The notes under the pieces were generated by a model. That model ran no database searches. It was not told where the DNA came from and saw only the letters and a list, made by a program, of their open reading frames with translations. From an uncultured virus (IMG/VR IMGVR_UViG_3300021400_000484) (lineage: Duplodnaviria > Heunggongvirae > Uroviricota > Caudoviricetes), in IMG/VR virus record IMGVR_UViG_3300021400_000484, positions 1 through 64,000 of that record: 64,000 nucleotides of DNA, one strand, 5' to 3'. Each line of letters opens with the position of its first letter. Positions within the stretch are counted from its first letter, which is position 1. Both the position numbers and the translations under genes were made by a program. Below are positions 17,988-62,757 of this stretch, one piece after another.

Positions 17988-19253
17988 TTAAACTTTCTCT
18001 ACACATATTAACCGATTTCTCCTCGGTGATATTCTTTTGCATAGGTTTAATTTCGGAGTCCTATTGCTCTTACCTAAATGACTAAAATCTACTTTCTTGC
18101 CATATATATTCATAAGTACGGCATATCCACTACTCATACGACCTTTGATAAAATATTCTCTTCCAAAATATTTTACCTTGTCGAATTTTCTGAATCCATG
18201 TATTTTGCCTGTTTCTATTCTTAACTCGCTTCGAGTTCCTTTTGTTTGTTGCATATCACCATGTGGAATATCTCGTTTAACATAAACTAACTCATTTAGG
18301 TTTATTATTGTTTCGCCTCCACTAGCAATAACGCAAGCATCTAAGTGATGGTCTTTTGCTATATTTAAATTCTGTCTGTTGGCTTTAGTTATATATCCAA
18401 ATGTTTCGATAGCTTCTGGATAATATTTCAATAATCGTATTCGGATAGAATTCATTTGTGTTGCGTGCTTTAATTGGCCTTTTGGTTCACCTTTTAATTT
18501 CAGTTTGATTTCTCTATTATGTAGTTTTTTATGACAATCATGGCATAGCGTTATTAAATTTTCTGGACTATCTCCACCACCATTAGACCTAAAAATTATA
18601 TGATGCACTTCTAATTTTACGCCTTTCTTTTTGGTTTTACATATATGACATTTATATCCGTCTCGGTTCAATACCATTGCTTTTGTATTCTCAAATCCAT
18701 AATTAGTTCCTTTTTGATAACCCCACTTAGCTATTTTTGGATTAGCCAGAGAAGGATTTTTCAGTAGATGAGGATCAAAAGTCCCTGTCTCTAATACTAA
18801 TTTAGTTATCGGAAGAATAGACTTAATGAACTCTATTTCCTTTATGTGACTGTGATATTTGCTTATCATAGTTGGACTAAATCTATTTGAACGAATAGAA
18901 TTCCTGCGATAATTAAATCTAGCTTTTCTATACCGCGTTTTTCTATTACGCCTGTTTCTGCGATAGGTTCTACGCCTATCCATCTTTTCTTTAATATCAT
19001 TTCTGATTATAACTTTAGATGTATAGACTATTTTTCCGTCATTTGTAGAAACAGCATTTCCTATAACCGAACTCCCAGTATCAACACCAAGTGTTAGCTC
19101 CTGTACGATCTCTGGAATTTCATAGAGTAGCTTAATCGTGAATGGCATTCGTCGAACAACTTTTGCTTTACCAGCTTTAAGAAGTTTGCGAACATGTCCA
19201 TGCCTATTTGTTGGCATTAAAGGCTTGTTCTCTTTTGTTAATACATAAACCAT
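17988..19253 (-). CDS. iscB: RNA-guided endonuclease IscB
   Basis: PLMP N-terminus, RuvC-I LGVDTGS, Arg-rich bridge helix RRTYRRNRRNRKTRYR, RuvC-II LVLE, HNH (CHIC...EVHH...NLITLCHDCH), RuvC-III HHLDA. Confidence 0.95.
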   Translation of the reverse strand: MVYVLTKENKPLMPTNRHGHVRKLLKAGKAKVVRRMPFTIKLLYEIPEIVQELTLGVDTGSSVIGNAVSTNDGKIVYTSKVIIRNDIKEKMDRRRTYRRNRRNRKTRYRKARFNYRRNSIRSNRFSPTMISKYHSHIKEIEFIKSILPITKLVLETGTFDPHLLKNPSLANPKIAKWGYQKGTNYGFENTKAMVLNRDGYKCHICKTKKKGVKLEVHHIIFRSNGGGDSPENLITLCHDCHKKLHNREIKLKLKGEPKGQLKHATQMNSIRIRLLKYYPEAIETFGYITKANRQNLNIAKDHHLDACVIASGGETIINLNELVYVKRDIPHGDMQQTKGTRSELRIETGKIHGFRKFDKVKYFGREYFIKGRMSSGYAVLMNIYGKKVDFSHLGKSNRTPKLNLCKRISPRRNRLICVEKV

Positions 19254-24063: not shown

Positions 24064-24159
24064 TAGGTGGATAGCCCGACGGGGTGAAAAGAAGAATCGT
24101 CAGCTTCCTGCCACCTATCTTATCTCTATAATTCTGACGTGTATTATTGACGGAATACC
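24064..24159 (+). promoter_or_regulatory. Structured leader RNA motif, copy 2
   Basis: TAGGTGG-ATAG..GAAAA-GAAG[AATCGTCAG]CTTC-CTG-CCACCTA; downstream CTGACG and GTATT[ATTGACGG]AATAC-C. Confidence 0.75.
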
Positions 24160-28849: not shown

Positions 28850-29515
28850 ATGTATGAAAATCTAAAAAATAATAATGATTGTGATAAAAATTCAAATTTA
28901 ATTTGTTTTAGAAAATCAGTTTTTGCTGGAATTTGCATATCTATAGGCGGAACTGTTTATCTTAGTATTGGCGGCATTGCAGGTGCGGTGCTATTCGCGT
29001 TTGGTCTGCTTGCTGTCGTACATTATCAGCTTCCACTTTATACAGGAAAAGTTGGTTTTATAAAAACAAAGCATGACGCAAAAATGTTGCCGCTTATCTT
29101 ATTAGGAAATATAGTTGGTGCTTTCTTTTTTGCGCTTGCTATGAAATGTGCGAAGCCTGATTTGATACAGGTCGCAAATTCTATTGTAGAAAAACGTGTC
29201 AGTTTAAATTTATTGCAGATGCTTATATTACCAATTGGATGCGGAATAATTATGACTACGGTTGTTAAATTTGCAAGGCAAAAGAAATTTATTCCACTGC
29301 TGATTGGAATACCTGTATTCATTCTTTGTGGTTTTATACACAGCATTGCAGACGCTTTTTATTATTCAATGGCATCTTTAAGCACTTTTACTGATAATGC
29401 ACTATCTATTGTTATAGCATATATCTGTGCAGTAATTGGTAATTTTATTGGTTGTGTATTACCAAACGAATTTAATTTTGGATTCTTTTTGGATGCAGAT
29501 GACAATAGCAAATAG
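28850..29515 (+). CDS. Formate/nitrite transporter (FNT) family channel
   Basis: AGICISIG, LYTG, GNIVG, GFIHSIAD, GNFIG motifs; about six TM helices. Confidence 0.85.
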   Translation: MYENLKNNNDCDKNSNLICFRKSVFAGICISIGGTVYLSIGGIAGAVLFAFGLLAVVHYQLPLYTGKVGFIKTKHDAKMLPLILLGNIVGAFFFALAMKCAKPDLIQVANSIVEKRVSLNLLQMLILPIGCGIIMTTVVKFARQKKFIPLLIGIPVFILCGFIHSIADAFYYSMASLSTFTDNALSIVIAYICAVIGNFIGCVLPNEFNFGFFLDADDNSK

Positions 29516-35317: not shown

Positions 35318-36505
35318 ATGTTCAAAGCATTCAAATATAGGCTCTATCCAACTGCACCTCAAGCAGAGAAAATCAACCAAAACATAGGTTGTGCTAGATT
35401 CGTCTATAACCAACTACTGGACGATAGAATCAAGGTCTATAAGGAAACAAAGCAAAAGTCTAAAAAGACTTACTATGACTTGAAGAAAGAACACACATTT
35501 CTTAAAAATGCTGATAGCCGAGCATTACTTCATGCCAGAGAAAACTTGGACGCCGCTTACGATAAGTTTTTTAAAGAGCCAAATACAGGGTTTCCAAAGT
35601 TCAAGTCAAAGCACAAATGCCGATGGAGTTACACCACAGACAATAACAATGATTCTGTTCGGTTTGACGGTCATAGACTGAAAATTCCGAAAATAGGGTA
35701 CATCAATGTCGTTGAGCATAGACAGCATGAAGGACGCATTCTTTCAGCGACAATAAGCAAAGAAAGAAGTGGAGAGTACTATGCCTCTGTTTTATGTGAG
35801 ATAGAACAGCCAAGATCATTACCTATTACAGATAGAGTTGTAGGTATTGATCTAGGATTGCATGATATTGTTGTTTGTTCAGATGGAACTAGAGTTGAAG
35901 CACCAAAGCATTTTCGTAATTCTGAACAGAAATTAGAAAAGAAACAAAGAGAATTTGCTAGAACTCAGAAAGGAGGTAAGGGATATGAGAAAGCTAGAAT
36001 TAAAGTAGCTAAGTGCTATCAGAAAATAAAGAACCAGAGAAATGATTTTCTTCAAAAGTTGTCCACCAAACTTATAAAAGAAAACCAAATTATTTGTTTG
36101 GAAGACCTATTTGTCAAAGGTATGGAACAAAACAAGAAACTAGCTAAATCAGTTACAGATGCTAGTTTTGCTAAATTTGTTTCTATGCTTGAGTACAAGG
36201 CAGAATGGTATGGACGTAAAATAATCAAGATAGACCGTTTTTATCCCAGTACACAGCTTTGTAATGGTTGTGGATGTAAGAACGTGTCTGTTAAAGGCTT
36301 ACGAGGCTTAAAGTTTCGTGAATGGACTTGTCCTGAATGTGGTGAAGTACATGATCGTGACTTAAATGCCGCAATGAACATCCTCAAAGAAGGGTTAAGG
36401 GATTTGAACCTACGGAACGTGGGGGATAGCGAGCTTACTGTGTGTCACACTAACAGGTTTTCTATTAGTGGAGATACGCTTGCACTCGAAGCCTACCGCA
36501 TTTAA
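35318..36505 (+). CDS. tnpB: RNA-guided endonuclease TnpB
   Basis: KAFKYRLYP HTH, GCARFVYN, RuvC GIDLG / CLEDL / HDRDLNAA intact, zinc finger CNGC..CPECG. Confidence 0.95.
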   Translation: MFKAFKYRLYPTAPQAEKINQNIGCARFVYNQLLDDRIKVYKETKQKSKKTYYDLKKEHTFLKNADSRALLHARENLDAAYDKFFKEPNTGFPKFKSKHKCRWSYTTDNNNDSVRFDGHRLKIPKIGYINVVEHRQHEGRILSATISKERSGEYYASVLCEIEQPRSLPITDRVVGIDLGLHDIVVCSDGTRVEAPKHFRNSEQKLEKKQREFARTQKGGKGYEKARIKVAKCYQKIKNQRNDFLQKLSTKLIKENQIICLEDLFVKGMEQNKKLAKSVTDASFAKFVSMLEYKAEWYGRKIIKIDRFYPSTQLCNGCGCKNVSVKGLRGLKFREWTCPECGEVHDRDLNAAMNILKEGLRDLNLRNVGDSELTVCHTNRFSISGDTLALEAYRI

Positions 36506-36566
36506 TGCGCTATGCGAAAGCACACGCGAGGCGGTGGGTAGTTCACATGATTAAGAAAACAAGAAA
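36405..36566 (+). ncRNA. TnpB omegaRNA (reRNA) overlapping the tnpB 3' end; guide from the flank starting at 36547
   Basis: ACCTACGGAACGTGGGGGATAGC...GAAGCCTACCGC...GTAGTTCAC is typical right-end scaffold architecture; 5' boundary approximate. Confidence 0.7.
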
Positions 36567-36683
36567 AGTAGAGAATAAGAAAAGAATTAGCAAACGTTTT
36601 GAATCACAGTGGGTAGTTCATATGATTAAGAAAACAAGAAAAGTAGAGAATAAGAAAAGAATTAGCAAACGTTTTGAATCACA
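36534..36683 (+). repeat. 75-bp tandem duplication spanning the IS right end and the start of the flanking gene
   Basis: 36534-36608 vs 36609-36683, one mismatch (TTCAC/TTCAT). Confidence 0.95.
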
Positions 36684-37479
36684 GCGTCCAGTTCGCAATA
36701 TTGAAGAAGTTCTTGCTGATATGGATGAAACAGCACGCGGTATTATGCGTTATGGCGTAGAAAACGCAGGTATTGCAGATTTAATGGGTGCGGCAGAACA
36801 AAATCTTGATGCTGATTATTGGAAAGCTGACAAAGAAGGTGATGAGGAAACAAAAAAAGCCATCGAAGATGAGATGGAACGCATGGAAAACGAAGCTACT
36901 GAATGTTGCGGAAAAATTATTGATGCCATTGACTCTGTATGGCCTGTTTCTGAATTAACACCTGCTCAAAAGCAGCGACTTGGCTGGGAACTTGATGATT
37001 TAAAAGCCTATGATACGCGTGCGATGGAAGATCCAAATACGTTTGTAAAACTCATTGTTGCTGAATATGCATTAAGTGAAGACAACGGTCTTCTTGAAGC
37101 ACTTGAATTTGCTTGTCAGAATGCACTTGATGAGACAGAAGAAATTGATATGGATGAGTCCGTGCAGCGTCGTCGCCGCAATCTACGTCGTGTGATTGAG
37201 AGCCGCCGCGCTCGCGCTAAAAAAGAAAGTAAACGTCGTGTATCAAAATGTCGTAAATTTGAAAACGCTCTTTATAATGAATTAGAACTCATTGAGGGCA
37301 CTTATGTTCTTATGCAAGATGTAGATCGTTATGATGATGTTGATTATGACACAAGACGAGAAGCTGTTGCTGCGATGATTGAAGCACAAGATGATGGCGA
37401 AGAAGATATGTGGGTTGGATGTGTTGAACGAATAAATGGTAGATTGGAAATTATGTTTGTAGAAGGTGAATCAGCATAA
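36547..37479 (+). CDS. Hypothetical acidic/basic protein (possible internal virion protein)
   Basis: ORF also extends in frame to an ATG at 36505; xES motifs beside Arg-rich patches. Confidence 0.7.
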   Translation: MIKKTRKVENKKRISKRFESQWVVHMIKKTRKVENKKRISKRFESQRPVRNIEEVLADMDETARGIMRYGVENAGIADLMGAAEQNLDADYWKADKEGDEETKKAIEDEMERMENEATECCGKIIDAIDSVWPVSELTPAQKQRLGWELDDLKAYDTRAMEDPNTFVKLIVAEYALSEDNGLLEALEFACQNALDETEEIDMDESVQRRRRNLRRVIESRRARAKKESKRRVSKCRKFENALYNELELIEGTYVLMQDVDRYDDVDYDTRREAVAAMIEAQDDGEEDMWVGCVERINGRLEIMFVEGESA

Positions 37480-40980: not shown

Positions 40981-41352
40981 ATGTTTCGATTTAAACATAA
41001 TTCTAAATTTGTTGTTAGAAGATCAAATAATATTGCTTGTGTTCAATGCAAAAATTGCAAAGGTTGTGTAGGCTGTTATAAATGCAAAAATAGTACTTGC
41101 TGCGTATCTTGTTCAAAATCATCAAATTTGAAAGATTCCAAAAAATGCACAAACTGCCATGATTCAAAAGTATTAGTATCATGTAGAAATTGTTATTTCT
41201 GTGAACTTTGCACAAATTGTGTGTATTGTTATCATTGCAAATTTTGTAAACACGCATTGGCAAGTACTTTGTGTGTAAGTTGCATTTCTATCTATCATTG
41301 CCGCTTGTGCGATGACATTAGCAACCAGCAAATGATTATTTGTGATGATTAA
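40981..41352 (+). CDS. Cys-rich CxxCxxC repeat protein
   Basis: Cys or Ser at every third residue over ~90 aa. Confidence 0.55.
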   Translation: MFRFKHNSKFVVRRSNNIACVQCKNCKGCVGCYKCKNSTCCVSCSKSSNLKDSKKCTNCHDSKVLVSCRNCYFCELCTNCVYCYHCKFCKHALASTLCVSCISIYHCRLCDDISNQQMIICDD

Positions 41353-41360
41353 TTTTTTTG

Positions 41361-41391
41361 TTGACTTGTTTTTGTATTTTGTATATCTAAT
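41361..41391 (+). promoter_or_regulatory. Candidate promoter for the RNA gene cluster
   Basis: TTGACT-17 nt-TATCTAAT. Confidence 0.45.
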
Positions 41392-41498
41392 GTATTCGTC
41401 TGGTTGATTCAGACAATCTTTGACAATAGAATAAACCTCCTTTTTAGAACTTTGTCAATTTTGTGTGAATAATCGTGATGATTATGATCATACCGTTT

Positions 41499-41581
41499 GG
41501 GTAGGTAGCGAAGTGGCTAAACGCGGCGGGCTGTAAACCCGCTCCCCTACGGGTTCGGTGGTTCAAATCCATCCCTACCCA
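41499..41581 (+). tRNA. tRNA-Tyr(GTA)
   Basis: GGGTAGG/CCTACCC acceptor, GCGGG-CTGTAAA-CCCGC anticodon arm, long variable arm, GGTTCAAATCC. Confidence 0.95.
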
Positions 41582-41585
41582 TTGT

Positions 41586-41662
41586 TGGAAATTAGTTTAA
41601 CTGATAAAACAACCGACCTTTGTTGGGGTCGTTAGATGAAAGTTTGAATCTTTCATTTCCAG
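41586..41662 (+). ncRNA. tRNA-like RNA with atypical anticodon arm (or degenerate tRNA-Gln)
   Basis: TGGAAAT/ATTTCCA acceptor, D arm, GAAAG-TTTGAAT-CTTTC T arm; CGACC/GGTCG closes an 8-nt loop. Confidence 0.6.
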
Positions 41663-41667
41663 TTAAT

Positions 41668-41980
41668 CTTATTGTGGTTGGGTTAGAAGCAAACATCCTT
41701 AATGAGTGTGGCAATCGCCAATAGCATATCCTGATTCTATATCTTCCAAGATGTAGAACGCATTAAAGCTACACCGCCCTCTAATGTTTAGCTAGCATTA
41801 TGGCAAATCAGCTAAAGTAAAATTTAGCGAAAGAGTGAATAGGCGGATCAGGCTATATATCAAATTGATAGAGTGAAGTGTAATGGTATATAGGTGAGTC
41901 GGTCACTCCGAGGATAGCAGGTAATCACCCCGTAAATGGTAAGGATTACACTCCACTTTGGCGTAACAGCACACAATGAG
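41668..41980 (+). ncRNA. ~310-nt multi-stem RNA containing 23S rRNA H43/H44 (L11-binding) look-alike sequences
   Basis: Closing stem CTTATTGTG/CACAATGAG; GTTGGGTTAGAAGCAAACATCCTTAATGAGTG near the 5' end and GGCGTAACAGCAC near the 3' end; multiple internal helices. Confidence 0.7.
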
Positions 41981-42404
41981 ATTTTAAAGTCCCGTTAAAA
42001 TCGGGCAATGTTGGCGAGGCTAACCAACACAGAGGTTTTAGGTGCATGTCCTGTTGCTGAAAAAGAGCAGCTATCTAAAAACACCTGAGTCTTTAGAAAT
42101 TTTCAAAGTTCTTTGAAAATTGAATAAAGTATTAGTAATATGGTTATGAACTCTGTGTCGGGCTAGTAGCCTCGGCTATGATGCTATCTTGATTCGTAGT
42201 ATCTAATCATATTATTATTCAATAAATCATTGCTACGAAGAGCAAGTTGTGAGAGTAAAGAATGGAGTTACTTAGTAAGTGCGCATAATTAAGTAACAAA
42301 AGGATTAGGGTAGCAAACGTAGAGCCTGGAAAAGCCCTAACGTATGGTATTGGGAATGATTTATTGCTTAGTCAAATTTCGTGAAGGAGCAATACTGATA
42401 AGTT

Positions 42405-42553
42405 AAGTACCGTAGGAACTACGGGAACTAATGTCTGTGGAGGGTATGGACGCTACGCCGCAAAGCGGCAATGCTGAGTATTCGTTGAAGCAGAAAGGAA
42501 TATCCGTGAGGATTCCATAGAATCCAACGGACTAAAGTACGTTGGTAGTTCAA
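42405..42553 (+). ncRNA. Orphan TnpB-type omegaRNA / IS605 right end, copy 1
   Basis: TACCGTAGGAACTACGGGAA...CTGTGGAG...GAAGCAGAAA...GAATCCAACGG..CGTTGGTAGTTCAA; no tnpB attached. Confidence 0.8.
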
Positions 42554-42580
42554 TATCATGTACCTAGGAATTTGGCTTTT

Positions 42581-42653
42581 GCACCAATAGCACAGTTGGA
42601 AGTGCAACGGTCTTCTAAGCCGTGGGTCGCAAGTTCGAGTCTTGCTTGGTGTA
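42581..42653 (+). tRNA. tRNA-Arg(TCT)
   Basis: GCACCAA/TTGGTGT acceptor, ACGGT-CTTCTAA-GCCGT, GTTCGAGTC. Confidence 0.92.
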
Positions 42654-42766
42654 CTACCCATCTTCACCTATTAATTTAGGTCTGTAAAGCATACGGATGA
42701 GATACTAGTTAATCATTCTATAAGGTGCAAAAAGAGGGGAAGTAGGAATGCAGTGACCTACTGTTT

Positions 42767-42842
42767 AGCGGTGTAGCAGAAAGGTTCATGCGGTGGCCTT
42801 ATAAGCCATGTCATTATGTGGGTTCGACCCCCACCACCGCTA
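42767..42842 (+). tRNA. tRNA-Ile(TAT)
   Basis: AGCGGTG/CACCGCT acceptor, GTGGC-CTTATAA-GCCAT, GGTTCGACCC. Confidence 0.88.
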
Positions 42843-42920
42843 TTGCCGTTGGGATACGACATGTTCGAGTTTTCGAGGACTAAATAACCCCGATAGCCTG
42901 TGTCGTTAAACAGGCATTAA

Positions 42921-43040
42921 GCCGTGAAAGTTCAGTTGGTCGTAACGGGTCAAGATTCTTCGGTTAAACAATTTAGTGAAGTTATACCTAAAGATACGGA
43001 GATGTGATGCAGACTTTGGGTTCGATTCCCAAACACGGCA
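42921..43040 (+). ncRNA. tRNA-like RNA with greatly extended anticodon arm (120 nt)
   Basis: GCCGTG/CACGGC-A acceptor, D loop AGTTGG, TTGGG-TTCGATT-CCCAA T arm; ~65-nt central stem. Confidence 0.7.
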
Positions 43041-43042
43041 TA

Positions 43043-43129
43043 GGGCGTGTAGTTTAATATGGTAAAACAACTCTCGCGAGGAATATAGAAATATATTCGG
43101 AGAAATAGGTTCGAGTCCTGTCACGTCCA
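43043..43129 (+). ncRNA. tRNA-like RNA lacking an anticodon (GAAA-capped arm)
   Basis: GGGCGTG/CACGTCC-A acceptor, D arm, ATAGG-TTCGAGT-CCTGT; centre GAATATA-GAAA-TATATTC. Confidence 0.72.
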
Positions 43130-43133
43130 TTAA

Positions 43134-43219
43134 GTCATACAAGTTTAGTAGGGTAAACGCCCGCAGTAAGGATTGATCACCTCTGTTGGGAGATTCAGGT
43201 TCGAGTCCTGAGTATGACA
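43134..43219 (+). ncRNA. tRNA-like RNA with elongated bulged anticodon arm
   Basis: GTCATAC/GTATGAC-A acceptor, D arm, TCAGG-TTCGAGT-CCTGA; centre CCC-GCAG-TA-AGG[ATTGATCA]CCT-CTGT-T-GGG. Confidence 0.72.
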
Positions 43220-43305
43220 TTTCCCTATGTCTGGTAGGGAAACGTTGCGTGGAAGGGGAGCATCGTGAACACTCCCTTCAAGCAATCGAATTATTTATAG
43301 TTGAT

Positions 43306-43612
43306 AGAAAACCCATGGGCTTTAGTCCGTGGGATGAAAAAGATAAAAATAAAAATCTTTTTGGTTGATTCAATATCTTATTTAGTGTAAATAAGATTCA
43401 GAATTAAACGATAACCAAGTTTAATTCTTATTTAAATTTAACTTAACATAGTTTAGGTTAAAAAAGTACCGTAGGAACTACGGGAACTTAGGTCTGTGGA
43501 GGGTATGGACGCTATGCCGAAAAGAGGCATAGCTGAGTATTCGTTGAATCAGAAAGGAAGATTCGTGAGGACTCCGAAGAATCCAACGGTCTTTAGTCCG
43601 TTGGTAGTTCAA
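43306..43612 (+). mobile_element. 307-bp IS200/IS605-derived miniature element carrying omegaRNA scaffold copy 2 (43464-43612)
   Basis: TTGAT then left end AGAAAACCCATGGGCTTTAGTCCGTGGGATGAAAA; right end ...CGTTGGTAGTTCAA; no protein gene. Confidence 0.82.
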
Positions 43613-43683
43613 AGTACTGAGATCTCCTATAAGTAATTGCGGATTGTAATAAGTAACTAAGACCAGACAACTTAGTTACTTTT

Positions 43684-43998
43684 GCCAGTGTGGTGGAATT
43701 GGTAGTCACAGCGGACTTTTGGTTATTTGAGCCATACAATAGGAAACTTTGTATGGGATGTGGGCTAATTCGGTGAAAGTCTTAGCAAGTAAAGTTGAAG
43801 ATAACGCCGAGCTAAATCAGAATTTAATATTCTGTAAACGTGTAGAGAACATACACCCACAACCTAAACACTTAATAGTGCATGGTTAAGACATGTTCCA
43901 GACTACAACCCTTATAATAAGGGGCTATGGAAACTTAGAGTAGTAAGAAAATCCGCTTCTCTTTAATGAGAGTATGAGTTCGAGTCTCATCACTGGTA
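43684..43998 (+). tRNA. tRNA-Leu(TAA) interrupted by a group I intron (exons 43684-43718 and 43948-43998)
   Basis: Splicing joins GCGGACTT|AAAATCCGC to give anticodon TAA; GCCAGTG/CACTGGT acceptor; long variable arm. Confidence 0.92.
43719..43947 (+). ncRNA. Group I self-splicing intron (229 nt, no ORF)
   Basis: Follows exon U and ends in G; CTAATTCGGTGAAA..AACGCCGAGCTAA (P4-P6), GTAGAGAACAT/ATGTTCC (P7 region), GTGGG/CCCAC (P3). Confidence 0.88.
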
Positions 43999-44084
43999 TT
44001 GGAGAGAACAAACAGAATTAAACTCTGCTTGTTACAAACAGAGTATGATCGGCTTGCCGACCCCAGCTCTGTCTCTCCATTTCG

Positions 44085-44178
44085 TGTGCTGATAAAGTTT
44101 GGTGCTTTAGCTAAGTACTTAGTGTCAATGTGATTTGCAATTAACATTGATAGCAGGTTCGATTCCTGCCAGCACGAT
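44085..44178 (+). ncRNA. tRNA-like RNA with canonical T arm and acceptor but remodelled core
   Basis: TGTGCTG/CAGCACG acceptor, GCAGG-TTCGATT-CCTGC, internal hairpins TAAAG/CTTTA and TGTCAATGT/ACATTGATA. Confidence 0.6.
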
Positions 44179-44278
44179 AATGGCGAAACTGCATGTGCGG
44201 GTGATTTGCTTTTGAGCATAAAACACATGTGCGGCTTTGCCATTTGCTTTTGAACAATTTTGTCTTTTGAGACGAAAA

Positions 44279-44308
44279 GAAAAGCCTAGCGCTCGTGCTA
44301 GGCTTTTT
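44279..44308. terminator. Bidirectional terminator ending the RNA cluster
   Basis: AAAAAGCCTAGCG-CTCG-TGCTAGGCTTTTT between convergent units. Confidence 0.85.
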
Positions 44309-62001: not shown

Positions 62002-62757
62002 GTGCTTATGTTTAATTCAGATGACAATTCCCATTTAACAGATTATCAGCTTGAACTCTTTTTAATGCGGAAAGAGATGCAAGATAAGGTCGATGAAACG
62101 TTGCTGAAAAACCCAAGGCGCAAGCTACCGAAAAAGAAAGCCAAACCGAATTCGGCATGGGTTATGTCTGAAATGAGAACTGATGATGGTGCTGTCACTG
62201 ATGTTGGTTGGGATCGCATTGAATCGCTTACACGCACAATTTTAAGAAAACATTTTCCGTCTATATCAATATATAAAGACCTTATTCAGATTGGTGTTAT
62301 TAAAGCAGCGCAAGTAATAATGGAAGATCCAGAAAATGGTGTTTATCGTTCGCTGAGAACTTATATTTATACTTGCATTAGAAATGAAATATCAAATTAT
62401 CTTTATCATACGCATAAGCGCACACGCGAGACAAGTGATGGTTTGATGTTTTGCAAGACAAGTTTTAAGCATTCGTCTATTGATAATAAATATATAGACA
62501 TGGTGTTTAATCGACTTCCAAAGAAATATAATAAATATAAAGAATTTATTACATCTGTCATTGCAGTGCTTTCTGATTCAGAAGATGAATATGATGACGA
62601 ATTGCTGTTTAATGAAGTGAGAATAAGAAGCTCTGAGCAAAACCTTGAACTTACGGATGAGGAGCTTAGAGAGAGTTTTGTCGATTTTATTCTGCCAGTT
62701 GAGAAACAAATAATAACATTGATTGTCAATGCAATACTTGTAGATCAGAGATCATAG
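62002..62757 (+). CDS. Sigma70 region-2-like protein (putative phage sigma factor)
   Basis: DLIQIGVIKAAQ...SLRTYIYTCIRNEISNYL. Confidence 0.65.
   Translation: MLMFNSDDNSHLTDYQLELFLMRKEMQDKVDETLLKNPRRKLPKKKAKPNSAWVMSEMRTDDGAVTDVGWDRIESLTRTILRKHFPSISIYKDLIQIGVIKAAQVIMEDPENGVYRSLRTYIYTCIRNEISNYLYHTHKRTRETSDGLMFCKTSFKHSSIDNKYIDMVFNRLPKKYNKYKEFITSVIAVLSDSEDEYDDELLFNEVRIRSSEQNLELTDEELRESFVDFILPVEKQIITLIVNAILVDQRS

Follow-up and report, generated by a model that had tools for sequence, protein, structure and literature searches.

We analysed an RNA-only island at positions 41361–44308 of a 64,000-nucleotide (nt) stretch of phage DNA (the window), which comprises positions 1 to 64,000 of the uncultured Caudoviricetes record IMGVR_UViG_3300021400_000484. 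The island is 2,948 nt long and all of its RNA genes lie on the plus strand. ARAGORN called six genes in the whole 77.7-kb genome, all of them on this one strand within 41498–44177, and five of the six also scored above the gathering threshold of the Rfam transfer RNA (tRNA) model. With five Rfam tRNAs plus an intron-split tRNA-Leu on the plus strand and no coding sequence between them, the locus is a phage tRNA array. Among and beside the tRNAs lie an RNA resembling the GTPase-associated centre (GAC) of 23S ribosomal RNA (rRNA), tRNA-like units, small hairpin RNAs, two TnpB guide-RNA scaffolds and a gene-less mini-transposon. An earlier note on this DNA had found no credible coding sequence here, and this was borne out: open reading frames (ORFs) do not exceed 104 amino acids (aa), the two longest (104 and 102 aa) both run antisense across tRNA or tRNA-like genes, and none of the four internal ORFs tested had a Pfam or PHROGs match.

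The decoding tRNAs and a probable group I intron

Four decoding tRNAs, the number given in the earlier note, were confirmed: tRNA-Tyr (GUA; 41498–41582, Rfam tRNA 61.1 bits), tRNA-Arg (UCU; 42581–42654, 66.9 bits) and tRNA-Ile (UAU; 42766–42843, 57.6 bits), all three called by ARAGORN, and an intron-split tRNA-Leu (UAA; 43684–43998), detected with Rfam RF00028 and, as the same gene, by the intron option of ARAGORN. In the long ORFs of the phage, TAT, AGA, ATA and TTA are each the commonest codon of their set; the four tRNAs thus match its favoured A/U-ending codons, and codon supply therefore explains all four. The putative group I intron of tRNA-Leu, 229 nt at 43719–43947, interrupts the anticodon loop between U34 and A35, and the insert aligns with the full RF00028 model (1–253) at 37.5 bits (gathering threshold 50; E 3e-8). 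Two different gut phages share this intron: the tRNA-Leu of a 252-kb phage (contig L144, 2733–3047) carries one of 227 nt; between the two intron-bearing genes, 4 of 100 base pairs are changed on both sides and kept, and three are broken.

A GAC-like RNA belongs to a family bound to tRNA arrays

The GAC-like RNA described in the earlier note is present and spans 41669–41980 (312 nt), as delimited by blastn, a family pattern and its closing helix. Its 5′ module (41676–41709) consists of a copy of 23S helix 43 (H43), a UAA-type junction and GAGU, with blastn matches at seven loci as well as family pattern matches, and its 9-nt loop UUAGAAGCA at 41684–41692 is identical to the 23S helix 43 loop. 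A structured insert of about 240 nt separates it from the 3′ module CUUUGGCGUAACAGCACAC, which stands at the end of the second part, resembles 23S GCGUAAUAGCUCAC and is followed directly by the strand that pairs with the 5′ flank; this portion (41956–41980) carries the family sequence CUUUGGCGUAAYAGCACAC. The two ends are joined by a 9-bp closing helix (41669–41677 with 41972–41980), and both 41669–41725 and 41912–41980 match many family loci by blastn. Strict blast found no other significant segment of similarity to 23S beyond the H43 piece, so that the RNA is not a true rRNA gene or fragment; a lenient alignment to 23S over the whole length was meaningless and was discarded.

Scanning viral contigs with an H43-loop pattern gave at least 119 loci. 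Among the matches listed, 47 of the 71 distinct loci with full flanks carry GGA.GU.GGCUUAGAAGCAGCCAUC.U.UAA.GAGU, and the remaining 24, which represent a coding family or chance matches, were used as controls. Among these same listed matches, tRNAs were found within 1.5 kb of the core in 38 of the 47 GAC-like loci versus none of the 24 controls, the neighbouring tRNAs lie without exception on the strand of the RNA (188/188), and a tRNA ends 15–23 nt before the core in 16 of the 47 loci, the distance in the window being 17 nt. At least five contiguous closing pairs were observed in 25 of the 29 loci having both modules, and the mean run of closing pairs across these 29 loci was 6.86, compared with 4.14 (maximum 4.79) over 200 permutations of the partners. 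When prokaryote species genomes were scanned with the 3′ module, 18 places were found, 17 of them in contigs of metagenome-assembled genomes (MAGs), with an H43 loop upstream in nine and same-strand tRNAs within 600 nt in 13. The GAC-like family is bound to tRNA arrays. The RNA at 41669–41980 is thus a member of this structured RNA family, with paired ends that would rebuild helices H42-H43-H44 around a variable insert.

The RNA is delimited in a cassette at 41585–42141, which is opened by the tRNA-like unit T2 (41585–41663) and closed by a hairpin-rich tail at 41981–42141; the tail has no Rfam match and is absent in the cluster of the 252-kb phage. Evidence at the RNA level came from assembled contigs of public RNA libraries. 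A 361-nt contig of a relative, from a sheep-gut RNA library (X20), lies on 41677–42034 and thus reaches into the tail, with a depth of 88.6 compared with 2.7–3.2 for contigs of flanking genes in this library. It differs from the window by 25 substitutions and three indels; the 21 substitutions that are listed lie without exception in the insert at 41712–41918 (~207 nt) and spare the two GAC modules (~98 nt), and compensatory pairs occur in the insert at 41777/41803 and 41783/41799. This gives a hint that the GAC-like RNA is abundant in the RNA library. The unassigned spacer that follows (42143–42404), parts of which align with the cluster of the 252-kb phage, is also present in RNA libraries, with identical contigs on 42143–42445 in three libraries from two studies (X15, X16 and X18). 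Other stretches of the cluster are not covered by contigs of these libraries.

tRNA-like units and hairpin RNAs

All five tRNA-like units of the earlier note were recovered, at 41585–41663 (T2), 42922–43042 (T4), 43043–43129 (T5), 43134–43221 (T6) and 44085–44177 (T9). T2 is a tRNA with an 8-nt anticodon loop UUUGUUGG (ARAGORN ‘tgtt’; Rfam tRNA 46.6 bits) and is Asn-GUU-like or Thr-UGU-like. T5 (ARAGORN ‘Arg gcg’; Rfam tRNA 41.9 bits) has an extended anticodon arm capped by GAAA, and shows a single difference from its counterpart in the 252-kb phage in the MAFFT alignment (two by script alignment); its neighbours diverge between the two phages, the adjacent T6 beyond alignment. By this comparison, T5 stands out as a non-decoding tRNA-like RNA under strong constraint.

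T4, T6 and T9 keep a 6–7-bp acceptor stem and a canonical T arm, and their lower halves are irregular or closed, so that their predicted folds have no anticodon loop. All three fall outside the tRNA model: neither T4 nor T6 had any RF00005 match at E up to 10, and T9 matched only tRNA-Sec, at 25.6 bits. In T4, identified by its fold and by an orphan T-arm at 43016, a 66-nt irregular arm replaces the anticodon arm between acceptor stem and T arm, and the unit lies below all Rfam thresholds; T6, with an orphan T-arm at 43195, folds with acceptor, D and T arms plus a long irregular anticodon arm; and T9 (ARAGORN ‘Ser act’) is a class-II tRNA-like unit in which the ‘anticodon’ hairpin has a 4-nt loop. 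T-arm motifs outside called tRNAs were frequent in phage arrays generally, accounting for 29 of 158 and occurring in 19 of 46 array loci.

Covariation was found in several small RNAs between these units. T8 (44000–44080), a closing stem with two hairpins, keeps the same three-helix fold in the 252-kb phage despite 23 differences, including one both-sided compensatory change. The two hairpins at 43222–43285 have 24 pairs, of which 18 are unchanged in L144, four are changed on both sides and kept, and two are broken. The hairpins after tRNA-Ile (42844–42918) show three differences from L144, and the one at 42895–42914 keeps its pairing in the near-identical contig L006 through one compensatory pair and one wobble, as judged by eye. 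Exact-pattern scans for T5 and T8 returned no contigs beyond those already in the comparison.

A syntenic cluster resolves the island into separate modules

The 252-kb phage carries a compact syntenic island of 1.66 kb (L144 1557–3221). It begins with the leader and tRNA-Tyr, followed by two spacer pieces, tRNA-Arg-UCU, a tRNA-Val that is missing from the window, and tRNA-Ile-UAU, and it continues with T5, a tRNA-like sequence at the place of T6, the two hairpins, the intron-bearing tRNA-Leu, T8 and a true tRNA-Ser (GGA) at the place of T9. Identities to the window are 99% for leader plus tRNA-Tyr, 93% for tRNA-Ile with its trailing hairpins, 90% for tRNA-Leu and 77–83% for the spacer pieces 42144–42207 and 42361–42401. 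The GAC cassette as a whole (T2, GAC-like RNA and tail), 42208–42360, R1 (one of the guide-RNA scaffolds), T4 and the mini-transposon are absent from it, and no occurrence of the H43 loop pattern was found across the 252 kb of this phage. At the place of T6, the differing, tRNA-like sequence of L144 (2490–2580) contains CUGAUGAG, a hammerhead core motif that may be there by chance.

Further plasticity was seen in L006, a near-identical contig of 41.5 kb. On its reverse strand, the 3′ end of tRNA-Ile is followed by an insert of about 950 nt that contains a Cys-rich ORF and is accompanied by a second copy of a tRNA 3′ half, an arrangement that looks like a homing-endonuclease-type insertion; the tRNA-Arg-UCU gene of this contig is also a different one, and an ORF of 76 aa lies between tRNA-like pieces. 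Among close and more distant relatives, the differences concern whole modules, namely the GAC cassette, T4, R1, the mini-transposon, tRNA-Val and the homing-endonuclease-like insert. The earlier note had let its proposal depend in part on whether the spacers were conserved; they are both conserved and covarying, so that this objection to it falls away.

Two guide-RNA scaffolds and a gene-less mini-transposon

Two omegaRNA-type scaffolds, as the earlier note had proposed, were located at 42405–42553 (R1) and 43464–43612 (R2), where they form a 149-nt direct repeat of 89% identity. R1, which ends in ...GTAGTTCAA, was assigned from this repeat, from Rfam and from its homologues as an orphan TnpB reRNA/omegaRNA scaffold of the RAGATH-18 type. 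The scaffold aligns with RAGATH-18 (RF03064) over its full length at 25.9 bits (gathering threshold 44.9; E 0.0048 in a 201-nt search), copies in contigs L007 and L009 score 26.9 and 25.8 bits, and in a common fold of ten sequences 8 of 17 pairs show both-sided compensatory changes. Among nine loci examined from a degenerate-pattern scan, four (L013, L014, L020 and L023) have this architecture across the 3′ end of a TnpB ORF; matches in L008 and L022 were rejected as chance or coding. No TnpB adjoins R1, R2 or the pair of gene-less copies carried by the 252-kb phage, and a tblastn search of the cluster with five TnpB proteins gave no coding remnant (best E 0.54). The resident TnpB of the phage (35318–36505) is 34–40% identical to the scaffold-bearing TnpBs and has a different 3′ region.

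R2 is carried by a gene-less, PATE-like mini-transposon of 314 nt (43299–43612) with hairpins near both ends. This element is missing from L006, is skipped exactly in an RNA-library contig of X20 that joins 43298 to 43613, and has copies elsewhere in the 252-kb phage that are 76% identical across 324 nt; R1 likewise is an indel relative to the L144 cluster. R1 and R2 thus appear to be mobile-element passengers, parts of TnpB transposons, which calls for caution against reading all RNAs co-located in an array as one system. No Y1 transposase (Y1_Tnp) was found in the 77.7-kb genome, in which a serine-recombinase TnpA was not searched for, and neither for the 24 nt behind R1 nor for those behind R2 does the phage genome contain a second match of at least 11 nt.

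The phage has both TnpB- and IscB-type genes, the latter encoding a protein of 421 aa in which RRXRR and HNH domains form an IscB-like architecture (17988–19253, minus strand); no HEARO/omegaRNA match reached the Rfam gathering score. At the resident TnpB element (35318–36684), the right end ...GGGTAGTTCA together with the first ~65 nt of flank forms a tandem repeat, with copies of 75 nt at 36535–36609 and 36610–36684 that differ by one mismatch, and the start of the next ORF is therefore present twice.

Transcription signals and genomic surroundings

The promoter that the earlier note had placed ahead of the island, TTGACT-17-TATCTA (41362–41390, plus strand), can be seen in the sequence, but it is weak and not unique: a consensus scan did not list it, its surroundings have no counterpart in the 252-kb relative, and promoter-like sites are no commoner in the region than in shuffled sequence (14 versus 12.3 ± 3.8). 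The scan gave a stronger candidate on the same strand, TTGATT-17-TAGAAT at 41404–41432 (9 of 12 matches), for which TTGTTT-17-TTGAAT is the counterpart in the 252-kb phage as aligned by eye. A protein with sigma-70 region 2 is encoded at 62002–62757 (plus strand), so that some of the promoters used by the phage may escape a scan for the sigma-70 consensus. The strong terminator in the earlier note was verified as a 13-bp hairpin at 44279–44308; it is a two-way intrinsic terminator, with 13 pairs on the plus and 11 on the minus strand, and is shared with a convergent gene of 644 aa.

By our tally of the parts, about 2,045 of the 2,948 nt (69%) can be named, and sliding-window folding z-scores are modestly negative and separate the cluster from its flanks weakly, so that the description of nearly the whole sequence as folding into self-contained units was too strong. 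Rfam matches below threshold in the region include YrlA (27.6 bits), SpF41, LOOT, HPnc0580 and others.

The complete virus record has 77,744 bp with inverted terminal repeats, of which 107 bp were measured as a perfect repeat, and is rated complete by CheckV; at this size the phage is mid-sized and not the jumbo phage it had been taken for. Its G+C content is 35%, compared with 40% in the RNA cluster. Its genes include those for a T4-type baseplate protein, a gp19-like tail tube protein, a tape-measure-like protein and a DNA polymerase III beta clamp, in addition to TnpB, the IscB-like RRXRR+HNH protein and the sigma-70-like protein. In the viral and metagenome collections searched, the proteins flanking the cluster matched only near-identical contigs, and a blastn search of isolate phages with the cluster returned 46 records, which matched in tRNA pieces alone and in no case covered 80% or more.

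Three further observations were made on the plus strand outside the island. A Cys-rich ORF of 123 aa (40981–41352) directly upstream of it has PHROG 15341, of unknown function, as its sole match. A protein of the formate/nitrite-transporter family is encoded at 28850–29515. An int-alpA RNA (RF02996; 40.7 bits, above gathering) lies at 24064–24133, upstream of a gene for a 907-aa protein with a VapE-like domain.

Interpretation of the island

Taken together, the locus is probably a modular, RNA-only island of tRNAs and other non-coding RNAs built on a phage tRNA array, whose modules have separate origins and likely separate jobs. We infer that transcription of the plus strand would yield one or a few precursors, from which tRNA-maturing enzymes could release the units, RNase P at 5′ ends and RNase Z/E at 3′ ends. 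Strong transcription of one strand and tRNA-type processing would make such an array suitable for expressing any small RNA. The proposal in the earlier note that flanking tRNAs supply the sites for processing is plausible in this respect, because across the GAC-like family tRNAs are mostly near, on the same strand and in about a third of the loci 15–23 nt before the core, and because the deep RNA-library contig of a relative is centred on the GAC-like RNA; the joint role that it attached to the released RNAs was left without support. Among the products, the four decoding tRNAs would read the favoured codons UAU, AGA, AUA and UUA, the tRNA-Leu requiring self-splicing of its putative group I intron. 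The cassette 41585–42141 would supply an odd tRNA and the 312-nt RNA, which is predicted to rebuild the uL11-binding GAC of 23S. The tRNA-like RNAs, which keep the acceptor/T-arm half that processing enzymes recognise and have no usable anticodon loop, might serve as processing punctuation or as decoys. The two TnpB guide-RNA scaffolds would be passengers left by mini-transposons, and cassettes bounded by tRNA-like structures would be gained and lost singly.

For the GAC-like RNA, titration of a ligand of the uL11 site appears to be the most likely mechanism, and this ligand could be uL11 or a factor or toxin aimed at the site. That the RNA binds uL11 itself is conceivable, at clearly less than even chance. 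A wider reading, in which phage tRNA arrays launch decoys of the translation machinery, with GAC-like RNA capturing uL11, a factor or a toxin, with T5-like RNAs absorbing enzymes that recognise the acceptor/T-arm half, and with both jointly blunting the stringent response or translation-targeting defences, is speculative and in our judgement unlikely; if true, it would mean that the GAC-like RNA is made in tRNA-like amounts.

Several observations weigh against the modular reading or parts of it. Taken alone, the GAC match to E. coli rrlH (23S) covers 20 of 24 nt with an E of 0.07, and the H43 copy in the window has two G.A oppositions at its top in place of the G-C and C-G pairs of the family and of E. 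coli, so that uL11 might not bind. T4, T6 and T9 lack a conserved counterpart and may represent tRNA genes in decay. Some 31% of the region has no assignment, and internal promoter-like sites are present, e.g. at 42113–42141. RNA libraries may hold DNA, and the contigs assembled from them show neither RNA ends, strand, levels nor a single precursor.

Three other explanations were weighed. The earlier note had suggested a coherent translation-mimicry toolkit, in which the rRNA-like RNA and its tRNA-like neighbours would have been brought together for a common action, either on the ribosome or against translation-arresting defences. The tie of GAC-like RNAs to tRNA arrays across phages and in 13 of the 18 places in prokaryote and MAG contigs, the frequency of T-arm motifs outside called tRNAs (29/158, 19/46 loci), the near-identity of T5 in two different phages and the seeming abundance of the GAC-like RNA in an RNA library all agree with it; nevertheless, T5 and T8 are retained in the cluster of the 252-kb phage, which has no GAC-like RNA anywhere in its genome, the modules vary as independent indels among relatives, the omegaRNA scaffolds derive from TnpB transposons, and no second rRNA-like piece was found. 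A shared need for strong transcription and tRNA-type processing would explain the co-location equally well, and we regard a joint role as improbable.

Still less probable is a decaying tRNA array, in which function is limited to the canonical tRNAs, the tRNA-like units count as pseudogenes, and the spacers consist of neutral filler and transposon debris. This would fit the failure of T4, T6 and T9 against the Rfam tRNA model, the position of T9 where the relative has an intact tRNA-Ser, the divergence of T6 beyond alignment and the presence of T4 as an indel. It is at odds with a T5 that is almost unchanged though unable to decode, with the both-sided compensatory changes counted above (four in the hairpins 43222–43285, one in T8, four in the intron-bearing tRNA and two in the GAC insert) and with the membership of the GAC-like RNA in a large covarying family. 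Small proteins missed by ORF length filters are very improbable, since the many ORFs of 30–60 aa on both strands overlap structured RNA genes, mostly start with TTG or GTG and have no family matches, substitutions relative to relatives preserve base pairs, and the TnpB searches revealed no coding remnant.

Comparison with known systems

The modular reading can be set against several known systems. For the guide-RNA scaffolds, RAGATH-18 is the core of the IS607-family TnpB guide RNA of ISFba1 (PMC11061315). The scaffold of the island shares with it the RAGATH-18-like core, the GGAG / CGNUGAA internal loop and hairpins on the 5′ and 3′ sides, and its homologues abut TnpB genes; it departs from it in that the copies of the island score below the Rfam threshold and have no adjoining TnpB, and that the initial part of the scaffold is overlapped by the TnpB ORF in the homologues. 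The mini-transposon resembles PATE elements, gene-less, non-autonomous members of IS200/IS605 that encode omegaRNAs (PMC10055086), in having no ORF, similar end hairpins, a guide scaffold at the right end and a presence/absence polymorphism. It differs from them in lying in a phage tRNA island and in a genome with no Y1 transposase, and may belong to either IS605 or IS607. For phage tRNAs that are proposed to evade anticodon nucleases (PMC10264068), the likeness consists in an altered anticodon loop within an array, namely the 8-nt loop of T2; T4, T5, T6 and T9 are unlike them in having no anticodon loop at all, and for this reason could not replace cleaved tRNAs.

The GAC-like RNA shares with the 23S GAC (top of H42, H43 and H44; E. 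coli 1051–1108) the identical H43 loop, the U.U opposition in the stem, the UAA-type junction, the GCGUAAYAGC H44-like loop and the closing helix. It differs from it by lying outside an rRNA gene, by the ~240 nt inserted between junction and H44-like loop, by the G.A at the two top H43 pairs and by a junction that is one base shorter. The 58-nt rRNA domain binds uL11 and thiostrepton in isolation, which is what the proposed titration at the uL11 site rests on. With the phage GAC-like family, the RNA has in common both modules, the covarying closing helix and the location in a tRNA array; at 312 nt it is a long member (range 147–376 nt in 29 rows, that of the window included), has a divergent H43 top, and can be delimited as a cassette missing from a syntenic cluster. 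The intron of tRNA-Leu occupies the same site, between U34 and A35 of the UAA anticodon, as the group I intron known from cyanobacteria and plastids, and is unlike that intron in residing in a gut phage and in its Rfam score below gathering (37.5 versus 50).

Extra stable RNAs in tRNA operons, orphan omegaRNAs and PATEs are already known. What is new here is a GAC cassette delimited through a syntenic cluster, with selectively conserved rRNA-like ends and a hint of abundance, together with a T5 that is strongly conserved though non-decoding, and with covariation in T8 and the hairpin RNAs. A literature search that did not extend to subscription journals or supplements yielded no paper describing a phage RNA that mimics the GAC or an island of this kind. 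The GAC cassette (41585–42141) and T5 are short, well-defined RNAs ready for assays of binding, processing and infection.

The usual explanations for tRNA genes in phages are codon supply and the replacement of tRNAs cut by host nucleases. A close parallel to the island is the tRNA gene cluster of phage T4, an ORF-free operon on one strand in which small stable RNAs (species 1 and 2) are co-transcribed with the tRNAs. The extra RNAs of that cluster, of unknown role, are cut out beside the tRNAs, and the island shares with it the organization as an ORF-free, one-strand tRNA operon. The island is unlike the T4 cluster in that its extra RNAs outnumber the tRNAs and include a copy of an rRNA site, non-decoding tRNA-like units and transposon guide RNAs, in addition to an intron. 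Most of this tRNA operon is devoted to RNAs unable to decode, one of which reproduces a functional ribosomal site and seems to be abundant in an RNA library.

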